From NCBI GenBank assembly GCA_027036135.1, contig JALVSY010000007.1:676880-740879 (forward strand): a stretch of DNA of 64,000 nt. The letters are read 5' to 3'. Position 1 is the stretch's first letter. Each line of letters starts with the position of its first letter. Source of the stretch: Pyrodictiaceae archaeon (GTDB lineage: Archaea > Thermoproteota > Thermoprotei_A > Sulfolobales > Pyrodictiaceae). Of the stretch, positions 41,104 through 47,510 are shown one piece after another. The notes under the pieces are model-generated. The model had not been told where the DNA came from. It saw only the letters and a list, made by a program, of their open reading frames with translations, and made no database searches. Both the position numbers and the translations under genes were made by a program.

Positions 41104-43065
41104 TTGCGAAAAGAGCTTGTTAAGCCCGAGAGCCTTGATGGACTAGTCCTCGTCTCTAGCCCTGCTGTACCACCTAGGTGCAGTGACCACATCTACTACG
41201 TTGCTACGAGGGTTTCTGTTCAGCAAGACCGCTATGAATCCGCTATAATGCTCTACGATACTGGTAGTGGCGAGCACCGCGTCCTCCAAGGCGGGCCTAG
41301 TGATACGTGCCCGCTTCCCTCACCCGACGGTTCACGCTACTTGTTCATTCATCGCCCCGAGCAACGTAGCCAAAGGGATAGGAAGCAGCCGGGGCTCGAG
41401 CTTAGACTAGCTAGCCCTGGCTCAACAGGTAGTGTGGTTGTGGCTAGGATTCGTGGACTCGTCTCAGCAGCGTGGAGCCCCGACTCTCGGAGAGTTGTTG
41501 CTGCTATCCCGGTTGGGGAGCCAGATGAGGATATTAAGCTTGTTACTCGCCTACCTGTCTGGTTTAACGGCAAGGGCTATGTCTATAATACCCAGGTCAA
41601 GCCCTTCATAATCGACGTTGACTCCGGCGACATGACCGAGATCGATATCGGGCTTGAATGGGTACAAGTGGGTAGTGTTGATTGGAGCCCTGATGGAAGG
41701 TACATAGTGATACTGGCCTCCTATGACGAGAAGAAGCCCTTCCTCTACCGGCTATACGTCTACGACAGTGTTAGGGAGGAATACTGGGTAGCTGCCGAGG
41801 GACTCAGCGGGTACGGGGAGCTAGCATGGAGTCCCGACTCTAAGAGGGTAGCTTATCTGGGCCACCGGCTTGAGCGGGGTTTCGCTACGCACAACCGAGT
41901 AATAGTTATTGATCCGTGGGGCGGAGAGGAGTGCCTCACGTGCAGTCTTGGGCGAAACGCTAGTAACACAGTTAATAGTGATGTCCGTGGCCCGAACTGC
42001 TCTAAGCGACTAGCATGGACGCGTAGGGGCATACTCTTCCTCATGAGTGACGGCGGCGAGGTTAAGCTCTATAGCGTCTTGCCGGGCAAGGAGCCTCGGC
42101 CCGTGATCGCTCCAAGAGGAGGAGTAGTTGACGAGTTTGCCACCGATATTAGTGGCGAGCTGGTAGCCTATACCTTTATGACCCCGACGAGCCCCAAGGA
42201 GCTATACCTTTACCTCGATAACAAGGCAATCAGGATAACGCGGCATACCGAGGCATGGGTTAACAAGCACCTTCTCTCCTCCCCGGAGAGGATAGCGTTC
42301 AGGGCAAGTGATGGAGCCCTTGTTGAGGGCTGGGTACTGAGACCACCTCGTGGCGTGGAGGAGAGGGGCTGGGTACTCTACATCCACGGCGGTCCCAAGA
42401 CCATGTGGGGCTACGGCTTCATGCACGAGTTCCATGTACTGACTTCAGCTGGGTACACAGTTCTTTATGTTAACCCGCGGGGAAGCGATGGCTACTCAGA
42501 GGAGTTTGCTGACATAAGGTGCCGTTACGGTGAGAGAGACTACGAGGACCTAATGGAGGCAGCTAAGTACGCGGTAACAGAACTAGGCCTCGCCGAGGAC
42601 CGAGCAGCTGTTATGGGCGGGAGCTACGGCGGCTTCATGACGAACTGGGTAATAGGGCACACCGGCTTCTTCAAGGCGGCGGTGACGATGAGGAATATAT
42701 CTAACTGGATAAGCATGTACGGTACCACCGACATAGGCTGGTACTTCGTCGAGGACCAGATATGCTGCACGCCCTGGAAGAACCCGGAGCGGTGCTGGGA
42801 GAAGAGCCCACTACGCTACATCGACAAGGCCAAGACACCCACGCTCATAATCCATAGTGACCAGGATTATCGGTGCTGGCTAGACCAGGCCTTGCAGCTC
42901 TACACAGCGCTAAGGCTACACGGCGTGGATACGAAGCTAGCAATATTCCCTGGCGAGAACCACGACCTATCGCGCAGCGGGAAGCCGAAGCACAGGGTAA
43001 AACGACTACAACTAGTACTAGAGTGGCTAGACAAACACATAGGTGAGAAAAAGGGGCTAGCTTAG
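41104..43065 (+). CDS. S9-family acylaminoacyl peptidase (beta-propeller + alpha/beta hydrolase)
   Basis: WSPD repeats, IHGGP, GGSYGG, DQDYRC, GENH; TTG 41104. Confidence 0.92.
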   Translation: MRKELVKPESLDGLVLVSSPAVPPRCSDHIYYVATRVSVQQDRYESAIMLYDTGSGEHRVLQGGPSDTCPLPSPDGSRYLFIHRPEQRSQRDRKQPGLELRLASPGSTGSVVVARIRGLVSAAWSPDSRRVVAAIPVGEPDEDIKLVTRLPVWFNGKGYVYNTQVKPFIIDVDSGDMTEIDIGLEWVQVGSVDWSPDGRYIVILASYDEKKPFLYRLYVYDSVREEYWVAAEGLSGYGELAWSPDSKRVAYLGHRLERGFATHNRVIVIDPWGGEECLTCSLGRNASNTVNSDVRGPNCSKRLAWTRRGILFLMSDGGEVKLYSVLPGKEPRPVIAPRGGVVDEFATDISGELVAYTFMTPTSPKELYLYLDNKAIRITRHTEAWVNKHLLSSPERIAFRASDGALVEGWVLRPPRGVEERGWVLYIHGGPKTMWGYGFMHEFHVLTSAGYTVLYVNPRGSDGYSEEFADIRCRYGERDYEDLMEAAKYAVTELGLAEDRAAVMGGSYGGFMTNWVIGHTGFFKAAVTMRNISNWISMYGTTDIGWYFVEDQICCTPWKNPERCWEKSPLRYIDKAKTPTLIIHSDQDYRCWLDQALQLYTALRLHGVDTKLAIFPGENHDLSRSGKPKHRVKRLQLVLEWLDKHIGEKKGLA

Positions 43066-43873
43066 TAGCTTCTTCTCTATCTCCCTCTCTATCTCGCCAG
43101 CTCTCCTCGTGGCCACTCTTACTGCCTCTATGACTGCTGACTTGAAGCCCCGGCCCTCTAGGATGCCTATCGCGGCTATCGTCGTGCCCGCGGGGGTCGT
43201 TACCTCGTCCCTTAGCTCTGCTGGGTGAAGGTCACTGTGCTCTGATAGATACCTAGTAGTAGTCTCTAGTAACTTGGTCACGAGGCTCCTAGCAGTGCTC
43301 CTGGGCAGCCCCACTGCTAGGGACGCTAGGAAGAACGCGTCAAGGAACTCGGCGACAATAGCTGGCCCCGAGCCCGCTACTGCTGTCCAAGCATCCATGA
43401 GTTCCTCGGATATCTCGTAGACCTCGCCGAAGCAGTTAAGCATTCTCCTCACCTCCTCGGCATGCTCGGAGCCCGGTGGAGAATATAGCCCGGTGAGGCT
43501 CTTCCGGATCCTTATGTTGAGGTTCGGCATTGCGCGGTGAATCTCGGCCCCTGGTAGGGCTTCGCGGAGTACTCGGGTAGAGATAGCAGCCATAACTGAG
43601 ACGACCACCTTGCCCGCAACGTCTCCCCGGATGTCCCTCGCTACTGCTGGGAACTGGTAGGGCTTCACAGCCAGGAACACATAGTCGGACTCCCGGACAG
43701 CGCACCTATTACAATTAGTTGCATCGAGCCCCGTCGAGCGGAGACGATTAAGGGTCCCGGGGCTACGCGCCGTCACTTTTACCTCTGCGCCGCACTCCTT
43801 CAGGGAGAGGGCTATCACCGAGCCTACCTTACCGCCACCAATAACAGCTACTCTAGTACCCTGGAAGACTCAT
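43057..43873 (-). CDS. proC: Pyrroline-5-carboxylate reductase; start codon one base out of frame
   Basis: VAVIGGGKVG upstream of track start, LAVKP, RAMPN, GSGPA, VTTPAGTT; ATG 43873 is off-frame. Confidence 0.85.
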
Positions 43874-43927
43874 CCCACGATACACCAAGGCACCGAGAGT
43901 GGGGAGAAGGGAGGTATAAAAACATTA

Positions 43928-44953
43928 TTACTCTCTCACATGGATTAGGCCGAGCTTCTTTAAGAGCAATGCGTATTCGAGCCTTGGTCTCGTGTGCCAC
44001 CTGTCCTCAAAGGGATCGTAGAGCTCATACGGGAAGGGGAACACCATTGTCCGGTAGCGCACGTATATGTCTAGGTCACAGCCTTCCCGGATCAATATAT
44101 CCGAGAGGGAACCGCTCATCGTTACCCCAGCCATTGCTCCCAGCTTTGAGTAATAGAGGTATGTTGACTCACCAGTAGCTGCTAACGCGCCGTAGAGAGT
44201 ATCGGTGCAGCGCTTATCCGTGCCAATAAGGGCCTTTACGCCGCTAAGGCCGCTCGAGACGTATACTCTGCCAAGAACATAGGCCTCACTTAGCCTGCGA
44301 TAATAGCGATTAATGTACTTAGGCTTAATACTACCCTGCAATGGCGCTGGCAAGTCCCTTGAGGCAGCTATGTTGATAATATCGCCTATCTTCTTAAGTG
44401 TCAACAAGGGGTCGTGGTCGAGCACTGCTATGAGTACGTGCGCTAGTACTGGTGTACGGAGTTCTAGCTTCTCTATACTAACGAGTTCGTGGAGGTGTTT
44501 ACCCAGCTTGTTAACTAGCTTAGGCTCACGCCTACCGAGACAGTTCTGTACTGGTATCTTCCACCCATAGTAGCCCTCATCGAGCCACTCAACGGGACTA
44601 CCCGGGTCTATCCCGGGCGGTATGAACCATGATATGAAGAGCTGCTTGGAGTTAAGCAGAGAAATAGTATGAATATACCATGGCAGGGGGAGCCCCTGCT
44701 TCTCAAGGAACTCGTTTGAGACTGTTCTCAGACGATGCAATCGTCTCCAGAGGCCTGGGTCGACGCGTTTTACTCCATAGACTACGCCTATGCCCATAGG
44801 CTTGAGGTGCTTGAGGTGGAAACTGCGGAGAGAGGAGCTCTTCTTAATTGTCTCTATGTAGCGGTAGCGAGTAGCAGGTGCAAGGCCCAGGTCGTCTAAG
44901 CGGAAATCATAGCAGCTCAGCTTCACAATGAATTCCTCGAAGCCTGTGCTCAT
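43928..44953 (-). CDS. Putative tandem-HTH (Lrp/AsnC-like duplicated) transcriptional regulator
   Basis: HTH-like LGLAPATRYRYIETIK then LKPMGI; second LDHDPLLTLKKIG...YINRYYRRLSEAYVLG; C-terminal FPYELYDP..W. Confidence 0.55.
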   Translation of the reverse strand: MSTGFEEFIVKLSCYDFRLDDLGLAPATRYRYIETIKKSSSLRSFHLKHLKPMGIGVVYGVKRVDPGLWRRLHRLRTVSNEFLEKQGLPLPWYIHTISLLNSKQLFISWFIPPGIDPGSPVEWLDEGYYGWKIPVQNCLGRREPKLVNKLGKHLHELVSIEKLELRTPVLAHVLIAVLDHDPLLTLKKIGDIINIAASRDLPAPLQGSIKPKYINRYYRRLSEAYVLGRVYVSSGLSGVKALIGTDKRCTDTLYGALAATGESTYLYYSKLGAMAGVTMSGSLSDILIREGCDLDIYVRYRTMVFPFPYELYDPFEDRWHTRPRLEYALLLKKLGLIHVRE

Positions 44954-45059
44954 TATTCTGTTAACCCTTGTTTGTTCCTGTTATTCCGCCTCATACATGT
45001 TTTGTGAAAATAGCATTGAAAACAGAAAACAATTACTTAACAATAAAGTGGTGAAACAC

Positions 45060-45209
45060 ATGAACACCAAGAAGATAAAGCTCGTACTAGCCCAGCTAGT
45101 ATCAAGGAAAGAGGTACGCATAGCAATACTCGTAGCAGCCTTGCTCCTAGCCAAGAACCTACTACCAAATGCAAAGGCCCGGGACATAGGCGACATACCC
45201 GACGCCTAA
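45060..45209 (+). CDS. 49-aa secreted-type micropeptide
   Basis: GGTGA RBS, ATG 45060, MNTKKIKLVLAQLVSRKEVRIAILVAALLLAKNLLPNAKARDIGDIPDA, then T-rich terminator. Confidence 0.7.
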   Translation: MNTKKIKLVLAQLVSRKEVRIAILVAALLLAKNLLPNAKARDIGDIPDA

Positions 45210-45216
45210 GAACCTG

Positions 45217-45233
45217 CTTTTAAGTTTTTCTCT
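45217..45233 (+). terminator. Oligo-T terminator after micropeptide
   Basis: CTTTTAAGTTTTTCTCT directly after TAA 45209. Confidence 0.5.
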
Positions 45234-45260
45234 AAGCCTCTTCATTAAATTCTTTAACAC

Positions 45261-45620
45261 ACCCTATACGCTGGTAACACCCACTACTCCTACCGGGTGT
45301 AAACTATACCCGCATTCCGGGACAAAGCCCTCGGCCTAAGAGCAATACTCAGGGCACACGCTCGCAAAATGTACGGGAAAGAGCTTGAGCAACTCACACG
45401 CCAAGAACTCCACAACCTAGTCTCAACAGTAATGCCTGGCCGAGAGAAACTAGTTGAGAAAATCTACTGGAGCAGCAGAGAAGAGGAAACACTAGCCGAG
45501 CAAATCGAGCCAGGTTCGCTAAAAAATCGAGTACCCTACCCAGCAATAGAGCGGAGAAATAACAAGGCTACACTCTTCATGTAGCTAGATATAGCCATAG
45601 CCTCTATTCTACCAGTTAGC
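45261..45620 (+). pseudogene. Probable gene remnant of unknown family
   Basis: Frame of ORF 45369-45584 continues through stops on both sides (...YSYRV*TIPAFRDK...TLFM*LDIA...). Confidence 0.3.
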
Positions 45621-45738
45621 TAGCACCTTCTCATCCATGCCCAGAGTTGCTTCCTTAATTATTTCATGTCCTCGAAATATAGTTTTGGTGCTTCAAGGAC
45701 TCGGTAGAGGCTTCAATAACCAGCCTATGTTGTTATCG

Positions 45739-46869
45739 TTAAAGGCTAGGAGGAATGCGCTTGAACAGGCCCCGGGGCCAAGCTATGAAGACGGTTACGA
45801 GTAGCGCTAGTACAAGTAATACTAGTGAGGCTGTGCCGCTTATAGGGAAGCTTATGGCTGCTAGGAATAGGAGGATGTAGTTTAGTGCTGTGTAGCGCCT
45901 TGCTGTCGGTATCCCGAGGATTATCGGAACCATCATTGGCGCGTGTATCAGTATGTGCTGGGTTACGAATCCTATCGTGGTCATGTGTATGAAGATGTAG
46001 AGTAGCTTGTATATATTCGGTGACTTGGAGTACATGAGGCTAGAGGCCAGCACCATTATGACATAGATCGCCGCGAATACGTGGCCTACTAGGAAGTATA
46101 GGTGGCTGCTCCTCGCAGGCCCCCTCTTCATCGCTCTCGTCTTCTCTAGGAAGACTAGGAGCTTATCCATCCTTGCCGCTGGTATGTAGAGGAGCATGGT
46201 TAATGCCAGGGCTAGCGCTCCGAGCGGTGGCCGCCAAGCGTATAGTGCTAGGCTTGCTCCCTGCGCCGCGTAGAGAGCGTAGACCAAGGAGGTTCTTGGC
46301 TTCTCACCGTAAGTGGATGGAAATGAGTGAATAGTTACAGCATAGATACTGGTAACCGCTAGGGCATAGACAAGGCCTAGGTAGTAGGTAAAGAAGCCCC
46401 TAGCCGGGTTAGAAGCCAGCGCATAGATCGCTGAGAGCGTGTAGGCATAGGCGAGCCCAGCTATGCTTAAGCCAACGCTTCCCCGAGGCGCCTCAGCAAC
46501 CGCTATCCATAGGGCTACTGCATACAATGCATAAATCGTTGCAAGAAGAGACCTGGGAGGAAGCCTATCTAGGAGCACAAGTCCCCCGAGGCCTAGACCC
46601 GCTAAGGCAACGATATAGGTAGCAATAACAAGTACTAAGGCTACCTTCTCTGCTCTCTTTGAGCGACGAGTACCCGAGGCCGCATAACTAGTAGCTATAC
46701 CAGCAACAAAGACAGCTAGTACAGTACTGGCCATTAGTGCTGCGTGAAACGCTGTATAGCCGCGAAGGGCCTCCCATAGAGCCTCCGCGAGTAGGAAGAA
46801 GCTGATGTACACTGCGAACGCACTGCTACGATGAACCAGCTTAATCCACGAGGCCAAGATACTCCCCAT
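45739..46869 (-). CDS. Polytopic membrane protein, NnrS-like (NO response) candidate
   Basis: About 12 TM segments with His in TM positions (HAALM, HSFP, HMTTIGF, HAPMM). Confidence 0.5.
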   Translation of the reverse strand: MGSILASWIKLVHRSSAFAVYISFFLLAEALWEALRGYTAFHAALMASTVLAVFVAGIATSYAASGTRRSKRAEKVALVLVIATYIVALAGLGLGGLVLLDRLPPRSLLATIYALYAVALWIAVAEAPRGSVGLSIAGLAYAYTLSAIYALASNPARGFFTYYLGLVYALAVTSIYAVTIHSFPSTYGEKPRTSLVYALYAAQGASLALYAWRPPLGALALALTMLLYIPAARMDKLLVFLEKTRAMKRGPARSSHLYFLVGHVFAAIYVIMVLASSLMYSKSPNIYKLLYIFIHMTTIGFVTQHILIHAPMMVPIILGIPTARRYTALNYILLFLAAISFPISGTASLVLLVLALLVTVFIAWPRGLFKRIPPSL

Positions 46870-46943
46870 GATAAAGTATACGTGTCTATACCTAGGGCAT
46901 TATCAAGGCTTCCACATATGCTCCGCGGGGAACCGAAAAAGAC

Positions 46944-47510
46944 CTACATAATATACACCACTATCCTGTCCCGGTACTCAACAACACCTCCCTCCACTAC
47001 ACCGTCCCAGCGATAAAGCAGATAGAACCTCTCAGCATCACCATGGACTAGCCAGAAGTAGAGAGCATTAACCACGTCGGGCGCGCCACCAGCAAGGTTC
47101 GCAGCAGCCATGACGCAGGCTATGCCGCCTAGGATAGAGTACTGGGTGGCTAGGTAGAGTAGGAGAGGCGTTAGTATCTGTGGCGCGAGAGTCACTAAGA
47201 GGTATTGGCTCGGTGTCATGTAATCATAGTCTAGCATGAGGGCTACCAGCTTCCTGTTGAAGAGGAGCCTAGCGCCAGGAACCCGGAGAGCAACCGCTAC
47301 CGCGTAGTGAGTCGCCTCATGCACCGCGACAAGGAGCAGCGCCGCAGCAATGTAGACAAGGAGACTAGCTGGGCACCCGGTAGCCCTATTGAGCAGGTAG
47401 AGCGACTCACAATGATTCGCGAACACGAGAGGCATAGAGACGAGCACTAGTATTGCTAGGAATAACCCGGCGTAGAGGGGCTTAAACCTCGCTATCTCTA
47501 CTCTTTGCAC
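46944..47510 (-). CDS. Membrane zincin metallopeptidase (DUF3267/M50-like)
   Basis: VHEATH, TLAP, NLAGGAPD in hydrophobic context. Confidence 0.72.
   Translation of the reverse strand: MQRVEIARFKPLYAGLFLAILVLVSMPLVFANHCESLYLLNRATGCPASLLVYIAAALLLVAVHEATHYAVAVALRVPGARLLFNRKLVALMLDYDYMTPSQYLLVTLAPQILTPLLLYLATQYSILGGIACVMAAANLAGGAPDVVNALYFWLVHGDAERFYLLYRWDGVVEGGVVEYRDRIVVYIM

Follow-up and report, generated by a model that had tools for sequence, protein, structure and literature searches.

A candidate three-gene regulatory module of Pyrodictiaceae centred on a single-chain Lrp/AsnC-like protein

Regulators of the Lrp/AsnC family (FFRPs) are homodimers of a unit composed of a winged helix-turn-helix (HTH) followed by a RAM domain of beta-alpha-beta-beta-alpha-beta topology. 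In the siroheme decarboxylases NirDL / AhbA-AhbB (PDB 4ch7, 4czc, 4czd) two Lrp/AsnC-like units form a pseudo-dimer within one chain of ~330–340 residues. In the RRNPP systems of Bacillota (Rap-Phr, PlcR-PapR, Rgg-SHP) a small open reading frame (ORF) encoding a hydrophobic leader and a short polar C-terminus adjoins a cytoplasmic HTH protein, and every receptor has a tetratricopeptide repeat (TPR) fold. A locus resembling parts of these systems is located in a 64,000 nt stretch of a Pyrodictiaceae archaeon (assembly GCA_027036135.1, contig JALVSY010000007.1, positions 676,880–740,879); this whole stretch is referred to below as the window, and window positions are used throughout. The locus consists of a 341 aa gene, X (43928–44953, minus strand), a 49-codon gene, P (45060–45209, plus strand), lying head-to-head with X across a 106 bp spacer, and a gene for a 71 aa helical protein, Y (45369–45584, plus strand). 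The preferred explanation, at a probability of roughly 0.45 and tentative, is a lineage-restricted regulatory module, found mainly in Pyrodictiaceae, in which a single-chain Lrp-like DNA binder would work with a membrane-associated small protein and an adaptor.

A first-pass annotation of the same DNA had proposed X and P as a divergent regulator and secreted micropeptide. All of the sequence features that it named (the 341 aa ORF, the 49-codon ORF, GGTGA, the T-tracts and the 106 bp spacer) are present, and it overlooked Y, the third conserved partner.

P and Y as partners of X

The product of P reads MNTKK...IAILVAALLLA...AKA RDIGDIPDA, from an ATG at 45060 to a TAA at 45207–45209. A Shine-Dalgarno-like GGTGA (45050–45054, plus strand) ends 5 nt before the ATG and is complementary to the 3′ end of the genome's own 16S rRNA (...GGAUCACCUCCU). 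The ORF list gives P only within a 93 aa ORF from 44928, an extension that overlaps the start of X. In 7 of 8 homologous P loci the stop-to-stop frame is 42–59 codons long, versus 98 in the window, which supports the 49-codon reading over the 93 aa reading. Closely related sequences have GTG in place of the window's ATG, so that a start codon is retained at this position, and 6 of 8 P homologues have a Shine-Dalgarno consensus match of 5 nt or longer within the 16 nt upstream (read by eye).

Searches with jackhmmer seeded with P recovered homologues in 8 distinct loci bearing X relatives. Between the closest pair, at loci L006 and L007, 20 of the 29 nucleotide differences are at third codon positions, with 18 synonymous codon changes against 7 amino-acid changes (ratio of non-synonymous to synonymous rates, dN/dS, 0.07); a second, more distant pair gives a dN/dS of 0.16. 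Two strain variants within P on other metagenome contigs (45141 and 45164) are both synonymous and lie in Leu codons, and an 82 %-identical orthologue carries exactly the same tail, LPDAKARDIGDIPDA. P is a real coding gene under purifying selection, and its 49-codon form is the right reading of the 93 aa ORF, as the first-pass annotation had it. Conservation of this ORF beside X homologues, together with the purifying selection, indicates that the pairing is more than chance. When the P profile was run against the 46,697 six-frame ORFs of the genome, two copies were found (E 1.6e-17 and 5.8e-16; next best 0.095), each the divergent neighbour of an X copy. The same profile retrieves 25 clusters at E ≤0.01 from a collection of 5.8 billion proteins. 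P has no matches in PADLOC or PHROGs, only a chance-level VPEID-CTERM match in NCBIfam (E 0.46), and no score above 0.76 in the ESM Atlas.

P can be divided into a basic amphipathic N-terminus, an 11-residue apolar core between R and K, a conserved LLP, a Lys and the acidic tail RDIGDIPDA. Across a 21-sequence alignment the family follows the same plan: a basic amphipathic N-terminus, a helix break, K/R, an apolar run of 10–14 (up to 18) residues usually followed by K, then x-[LIV]-x-P with a nearly invariant Pro, a Lys and an acidic tail containing [DE]-x-[PG]. In the 8 sequences compared in detail, the part N-terminal to the core has a net charge of +3 to +5 and the part C-terminal to it one of −2 to +1 (8/8), the apolar run is 10–18 residues and the Kyte-Doolittle 19-residue maximum is 1.39–1.96; all 8 have the layout of a Sec signal peptide or signal anchor (positive n-, apolar h- and polar c-region).

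P-like ORFs recognized by layout only were also encountered. On L064 (9051–9206; G000:C2) a 52 aa ORF with a basic N-terminus, apolar core, LP and acidic tail is convergent with an X paralogue, 8 nt past its stop; this paralogue has no upstream P. This ORF and a similar one upstream of X in L011/L069 were not counted as P, since the P profile does not detect them (E 7.8 and 1.8).

The frame of Y downstream of P is open from 45303, with no ATG, GTG or TTG before the ATG at 45369. Y is N-terminally short in the lineage of the window, at 71 aa compared with 80–82 aa in relatives of 81–83 % identity. Y lies within ±1.5 kb of X in 15 of 34 distinct rows, and within ±6 kb in 11 of 18 loci plus the window. 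At least three gene orders are found: Y after P, Y directly after X on the same strand, and Y upstream of X. Its presence beside X in differing gene orders is good evidence for functional linkage. In the Y model three helices form a confidently predicted core, and the tail is disordered; fold searches returned PH0832 as the best Foldseek match (E 0.54) and generic helical domains in VIA (best Z 5.5). Y has no matches in PADLOC or PHROGs, and window Y has none in Pfam. One Y homologue (P0077) scores 27.2 bits against Pfam NitrOD5 (PF11537; cut-off 27), and 2 of 14 aligned Y members match NitrOD5 at E ≤1 (best E 4.4e-6), which points to Y as a remote relative of that family. In the accessible text of PMC5847659, NitrOD5 is described as a domain of ~100 residues, present in Thaumarchaeota either by itself or in fusion with receiver domains, and as belonging to an archaeal 'Death domain-like' family.

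Elsewhere in the genome a gene distantly similar to Y (112 aa; Y profile E 2.7e-4) is located on L076 (2468–5366; G000:C7:182967–185865), tail-to-tail with a 259 aa protein ending in an HTH_10 (Bat-type) domain; adjoining ORFs appear KaiC/RecA-like by eye. Y-like proteins may pair with other regulator types too.

Predicted fold of X

X is without a family assignment in the sequence databases: no Pfam and no NCBIfam families were found at E ≤1, PHROGs and PADLOC likewise returned nothing, and an exhaustive HMMER scan of 1.84 billion representatives yielded only 42 relatives. The family alignment reveals the conserved motifs LSCYDFRL, PVxNC, RYYRxLSxxxVxGRV and PFPYELYDPxxxxW, the last of which bears out the conserved C-terminal FPYELYDP..W of the first-pass annotation. 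C14, H46 and C138 are nearly invariant in this alignment and Y218 is invariant. Comparison of the X profile with PDB sequences gave only short chance matches, of Kelch repeats on the PYELYDP motif. All ESM Atlas scores are below 0.9 and serve as leads only, to archaeal clusters of 355–415 aa, some with HTH_24 or HTH_AsnC. Half 1 and half 2 of X do not match significantly by hhalign (E 0.36), and the duplication is undetectable in sequence.

The AlphaFold2 model of X, built from a 33-sequence alignment, has a mean predicted local distance difference test (pLDDT) of 95.4 and a predicted template modelling score (pTM) of 0.92. Two successive units are predicted, each made up of a helical head resembling a DNA-binding domain and, after it, a ferredoxin-like domain, so that the Lrp/AsnC unit of winged HTH and RAM domain is present twice in the model. 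Two NirDL entries are the only significant Foldseek matches in the PDB (E 4.4e-8 and 6.5e-8, probability 1.00), with template modelling (TM) scores of 0.49–0.54. VIA, which is independent of Foldseek, again placed NirDL first, with Z 9.8 over 257 residues and a model range of 1–325. Residues ~162–313 additionally match ~13 structures of the Lrp/AsnC family along nearly their full chains (119–131 residues), at VIA Z-scores of 3.3–4.6, in a range below 8 where a match may reflect a common arrangement. Among viral structures in BFVD, Foldseek found none at E ≤0.001. By its predicted fold X is two Lrp/AsnC-like units in one chain, and the duplicated Lrp/AsnC layout that had been read from two HTH-like segments is upheld by the model, by the NirDL and Lrp structural matches and by the family alignment.

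The best-conserved block of X, RYYRxLSxxxVxGRV, maps in the model to the recognition helix and wing of the second HTH. X has an isoelectric point of 9.37 and a net charge of +7 over residues 141–235. Together with the transporter-adjacent paralogues described below, the conserved block and the basic charge are among the grounds for reading X as a candidate regulator.

Distribution and surroundings of the module

Of the 29 genomes in the GTDB family to which the window belongs, 18 match the X profile, as do 10 of the 12 high-quality ones, with up to 5–6 matches in a single genome. When the order was sampled, 11 of 13 genomes from this family had a match, and the 137 genomes of other families gave one strong match (family f8) and three weak ones (family f2). 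The strong f8 match also has a divergent P-like ORF (E 7e-5). In a maximum-likelihood tree of 29 X sequences the 8 P-bearing loci all fall within one clade of 11 rows (support 90/80), and the 10 rows of another well-supported clade are without P or Y in their vicinity. The expectation that homologous regulators would have a divergent ORF of 40–60 aa is borne out for 8 of the 11 rows of the one clade and for one locus in another GTDB family; among all 29 loci on the tree, P lies beside X in 8.

Surroundings at 18 loci are varied and largely housekeeping. X and Y are the only genes common beside P to six P loci and the window, and Pfam searches of 150 neighbouring ORFs from the 18 loci found no modifying enzyme, protease or transporter common to all P loci. 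In each of the 4 loci examined from the clade that lacks P and Y, a gene for an EamA-type transporter follows X at a distance of up to ~1 kb. In bacteria, Lrp/AsnC regulators are known to occur paired with EamA exporters, according to the accessible part of PMC8707732.

Several individual loci deserve mention. A second P-X-Y module is located in the same genome (G000:C7:154371–156220; L061 6372–8221; L003) in the order P(−) | X(+) Y(+). On L067 (181–7067) the permease and ATPase genes of a complete Dpp/Opp-type ATP-binding cassette (ABC) transporter set are followed, after 115 nt and in the same direction, by an X paralogue; the gene for the solute-binding protein is encoded on the other strand, and a classical Lrp/AsnC regulator gene is 2 kb further. 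In the orthologous L057 (8245–13354) and L058 (7991–13088) the module is followed by a 135–138 aa gene without a Pfam match, then by genes for a 1,010 aa CcmF-like cytochrome c assembly protein and a 518 aa thioredoxin-domain protein. Transglutaminase-like (DUF553 / Transglut_core) genes are found within ~2.5 kb of three P modules (L060 4035–5117, L057 4910–6490, L061 2461–4479), two of the three loci being orthologous. A canonical alternative heme cluster is present on L055 (G000:C30:176012–179272), where a fused AhbA/B is flanked by two ORFs that by eye resemble the radical S-adenosylmethionine (radical-SAM) enzymes AhbC/AhbD.

Within the window, the spacer between X and P (44954–45059) is AT-rich, with a GC content of 0.32 versus 0.52 for the window, and presumably holds both promoters and any operator. 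In alignment with the L006 and L007 spacers, those of the two closest relatives, a block at ~44993–45040 contains invariant columns. An imperfect inverted repeat, TGTTTTGTG/CAGAAAACA (44998–45006 / 45023–45031), was considered and rejected as evidence for an operator, as it is not kept in L006/L007. Downstream of the P stop codon is a T-rich stretch (45218–45233, plus strand) with TTTT at 45218–45221 and TTTTT at 45225–45229. These T-tracts are a possible archaeal oligo-T terminator; a scan for hairpin-based, bacterial-type terminators made no call there. An Rfam scan of 43500–46000 gave just two matches, both far under the gathering scores.

The neighbours of the module in the window are proC, an S9 peptidase gene, membrane protein genes and pyrF. 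An adjoining stretch on the minus strand (45739–47510) encodes a 376 aa polytopic membrane protein without a Pfam match and a 188 aa DUF3267 putative zincin membrane peptidase with a HEATH motif; neither is kept at other P loci. At the start of the proC-like gene (43057–43818, minus strand), in the stretch 43786–43875, the Rossmann motif VAVIGGGKVGS of the pyrroline-5-carboxylate reductase is in frame upstream of the first canonical start, and ATG, GTG and TTG are absent between the preceding stop and this motif. As for Y, a conserved N-terminus is apparently without a canonical start, and a non-canonical start, a frameshift or an assembly error could explain this.

Interpretation and comparison with described systems

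In the regulatory reading, X would most likely act as a 'pseudo-dimer' that binds the shared AT-rich spacer through its second winged helix and thereby controls the divergent genes, while its paired ferredoxin-like (RAM-like) domains would sense a ligand or a partner. P would probably reside in or on the membrane, N-in and C-out, as a positive-inside, signal-anchor-like protein with its short acidic tail outside, and Y would be a small helical adaptor linking P and X. P and Y may modulate X or may themselves be its regulated output.

Several observations weigh against this reading. Sequence profiles of HTH_AsnC type, HTH_24 and AsnC_trans_reg do not match X, the closest structural match of X is an enzyme and not a regulator, and one helix of the first HTH-like head is missing in the model. 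In most members the apolar core of P has 10–14 residues, few for a membrane span, and would fit a cleavable signal peptide equally well, and window Y lacks the first conserved helix. Decay of the module is apparent at several points. The second X copy of the genome is split into two overlapping frames (~122–132 aa and 261–288 aa); its orthologue in another genome of the genus is intact. A contig of a sister-species metagenome-assembled genome (MAG; L008 in G002) matches the window at 43346–44229 and then directly at 45292–45585; this 1,062 bp deletion takes the N-terminus of X (241 codons), the spacer and P, and Y on the same contig is split over two frames. Either true decay or an artefact of MAG assembly could explain the L008 deletion. 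Among the strain variants in X, non-synonymous ones outnumber synonymous ones by 9 to 4, which suggests weak constraint. The deletion, the split X and the mostly non-synonymous X variants count as evidence that the module is dispensable, and the deletion, the split X and the shortened Y as signs of its decay.

The first-pass annotation had favoured a different role, in which P is an exported propeptide whose C-terminal 6–9 residues are released and sensed by X, after re-import or at the surface, as an archaeal peptide quorum signal. P does have the n/h/c layout of a Sec signal peptide, with a positive N side, 10–14 apolar residues and then the nearly invariant Pro, and a small-x-small motif (A-K-A in the window) stands ahead of the acidic tail in 7 of 21 homologues, the window included. 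It was this motif that had been taken as a signal-peptidase site, but position −1 of the aligned site is E, D, L, M or V in the other 14 of 21, and an n-region of ~20 residues is unusual in Sec signal peptides. The tail is the best-kept part of P between the window and its 82 %-identical orthologue, and it differs between the two modules of the genome (RDIGDIPDA versus EFDVGVVA). Against the co-varying tail that had been anticipated, all P tails share the family-wide [DE]-x-[PG] in place of free divergence. RAM-type domains are sensors of small ligands, and one X paralogue follows the operon of an oligopeptide-type ABC importer; a protease, exporter or importer is nevertheless not conserved with the pair, by neighbour comparison and by Pfam at the 18 loci. 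The claim that X and P show exactly the arrangement of Rap-Phr, PlcR-PapR and Rgg-SHP fails at the receptor: a TPR-type helical repeat is found neither in the secondary structure of the X model nor among its structural matches. Co-folding of X with P scored 0.05, which gives no answer and counts neither way. Among the matches listed in a literature search for archaeal peptide signalling, the subjects are bacteria, phages or general bacterial quorum sensing, and none is an archaeal system. Peptide signalling by an exported tail is not supported and is judged unlikely. A version in which the acidic C-terminal 6–9 residues are displayed or released and read by X via the NitrOD5-like Y is rather improbable; it would be the first archaeal ribosomal peptide signal and would mean peptide sensing by a receptor whose fold is unrelated to that of the TPR receptors of bacterial RRNPP systems. 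The other suggestion made for P, a precursor of a ribosomally synthesized and post-translationally modified peptide (RiPP), is contradicted by the neighbour comparison, with no modifying enzyme conserved nearby (six P loci and the window; 150 ORFs at 18 loci).

The structural match raises an alternative in which X would be an enzyme, or a tetrapyrrole or cofactor handler derived from the Lrp fold, with P and Y as accessory subunits, for example as a membrane anchor. NirDL is the sole strong structural match and covers the whole chain, and C14, H46, C138 and Y218 could make a ligand or metal site. However, a canonical fused AhbA/B (330 aa, two PF17805 domains) is already present in the genome, in an ahb cluster with radical-SAM genes; the X family shows no similarity to this AhbA/B by hhalign (probability 0.2), and the most conserved block of X is at the HTH recognition helix. 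The CcmF-like and thioredoxin-like genes adjoin the module in two orthologous loci, yet this is the only pair with heme-related neighbours among the 18 loci, and an enzymatic role appears quite unlikely. A toxin-antitoxin or defence-like selfish module, with P as a membrane-damaging peptide, X as its transcriptional restraint and Y as a helper, would account for the up to 5–6 X copies per genome, the patchy presence, a genomic context that differs at nearly every locus and the frequent decay by deletion, frameshift and truncation of Y; P also has the size and hydrophobicity of type I toxins. Neither PADLOC nor PHROGs has a match for X, P or Y, though, and an integrase or mobile-element gene common to the loci was not found by Pfam at the 18 loci. 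The polar C-terminal motif and low dN/dS of P across genera, and the stable synteny with a transporter in one X clade, are likewise at odds with a selfish module, which is judged improbable. The regulatory reading of X, P and Y remains preferred.

The X and P families, a covalent tandem Lrp-fold protein and a hydrophobic protein of 40–50 residues, have no profile in Pfam, NCBIfam, PHROGs or PADLOC, and the three families form a recurrent module in hyperthermophilic Pyrodictiaceae. Annotated homologues exist in species that have been named. Small proteins in Thermoproteota are almost unexplored, and the module is a testable candidate for small-protein-dependent regulation, even peptide signalling, in this phylum. 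Given the predicted fold of X, single-chain fusion of the Lrp fold occurred at least two times, once in siroheme decarboxylase and once in X.

Compared with described systems, X/P resembles RRNPP in gene layout only: the fold is Lrp-like and not TPR, processing and Opp genes are not conserved, the cleavage motif is restricted to a third of the homologues, Y is an extra component and the host is archaeal. Y is like NitrOD5, an output domain of thaumarchaeal two-component systems, in being small, helical, often stand-alone and multi-copy, as far as the accessible description of NitrOD5 extends; it differs in occurring in Pyrodictiaceae, paired with an Lrp-like protein and not with a receiver domain, and in the missing first helix of the window copy. 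With NirDL, X shares two Lrp/AsnC-like units joined as a pseudo-dimer in one chain of similar length, but the identity is 11 % and X has no PF17805 (AsnC_trans_reg2) or PF22451 / NirdL-like_HTH signal; in contrast to siroheme decarboxylase, X is multi-copy, is paired with P and Y and has no neighbours for heme or heme d1 synthesis in the window. Residues ~162–313 of X superpose on Lrp/AsnC proteins such as P. furiosus LrpA (1i1g) and E. coli AsnC (2cg4) with Z 3.9–4.6, and the divergent genes sharing an AT-rich spacer, as well as paralogues beside EamA-type and peptide-type transporter genes, are Lrp/AsnC-like. X departs from that family in being a covalent tandem instead of a homodimer, in its degenerate first HTH, in an insertion between helices 2 and 3 of the second HTH and in the extra conserved C-terminal PFPYELYDP..W. 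In our reading X comes closest to an Lrp/AsnC regulator in how it would work and to NirDL in how it looks, and it fails the sequence signature of both; what is new is a single-chain Lrp-fold family that has a small protein as its dedicated partner, together with an adaptor of NitrOD5-like type.

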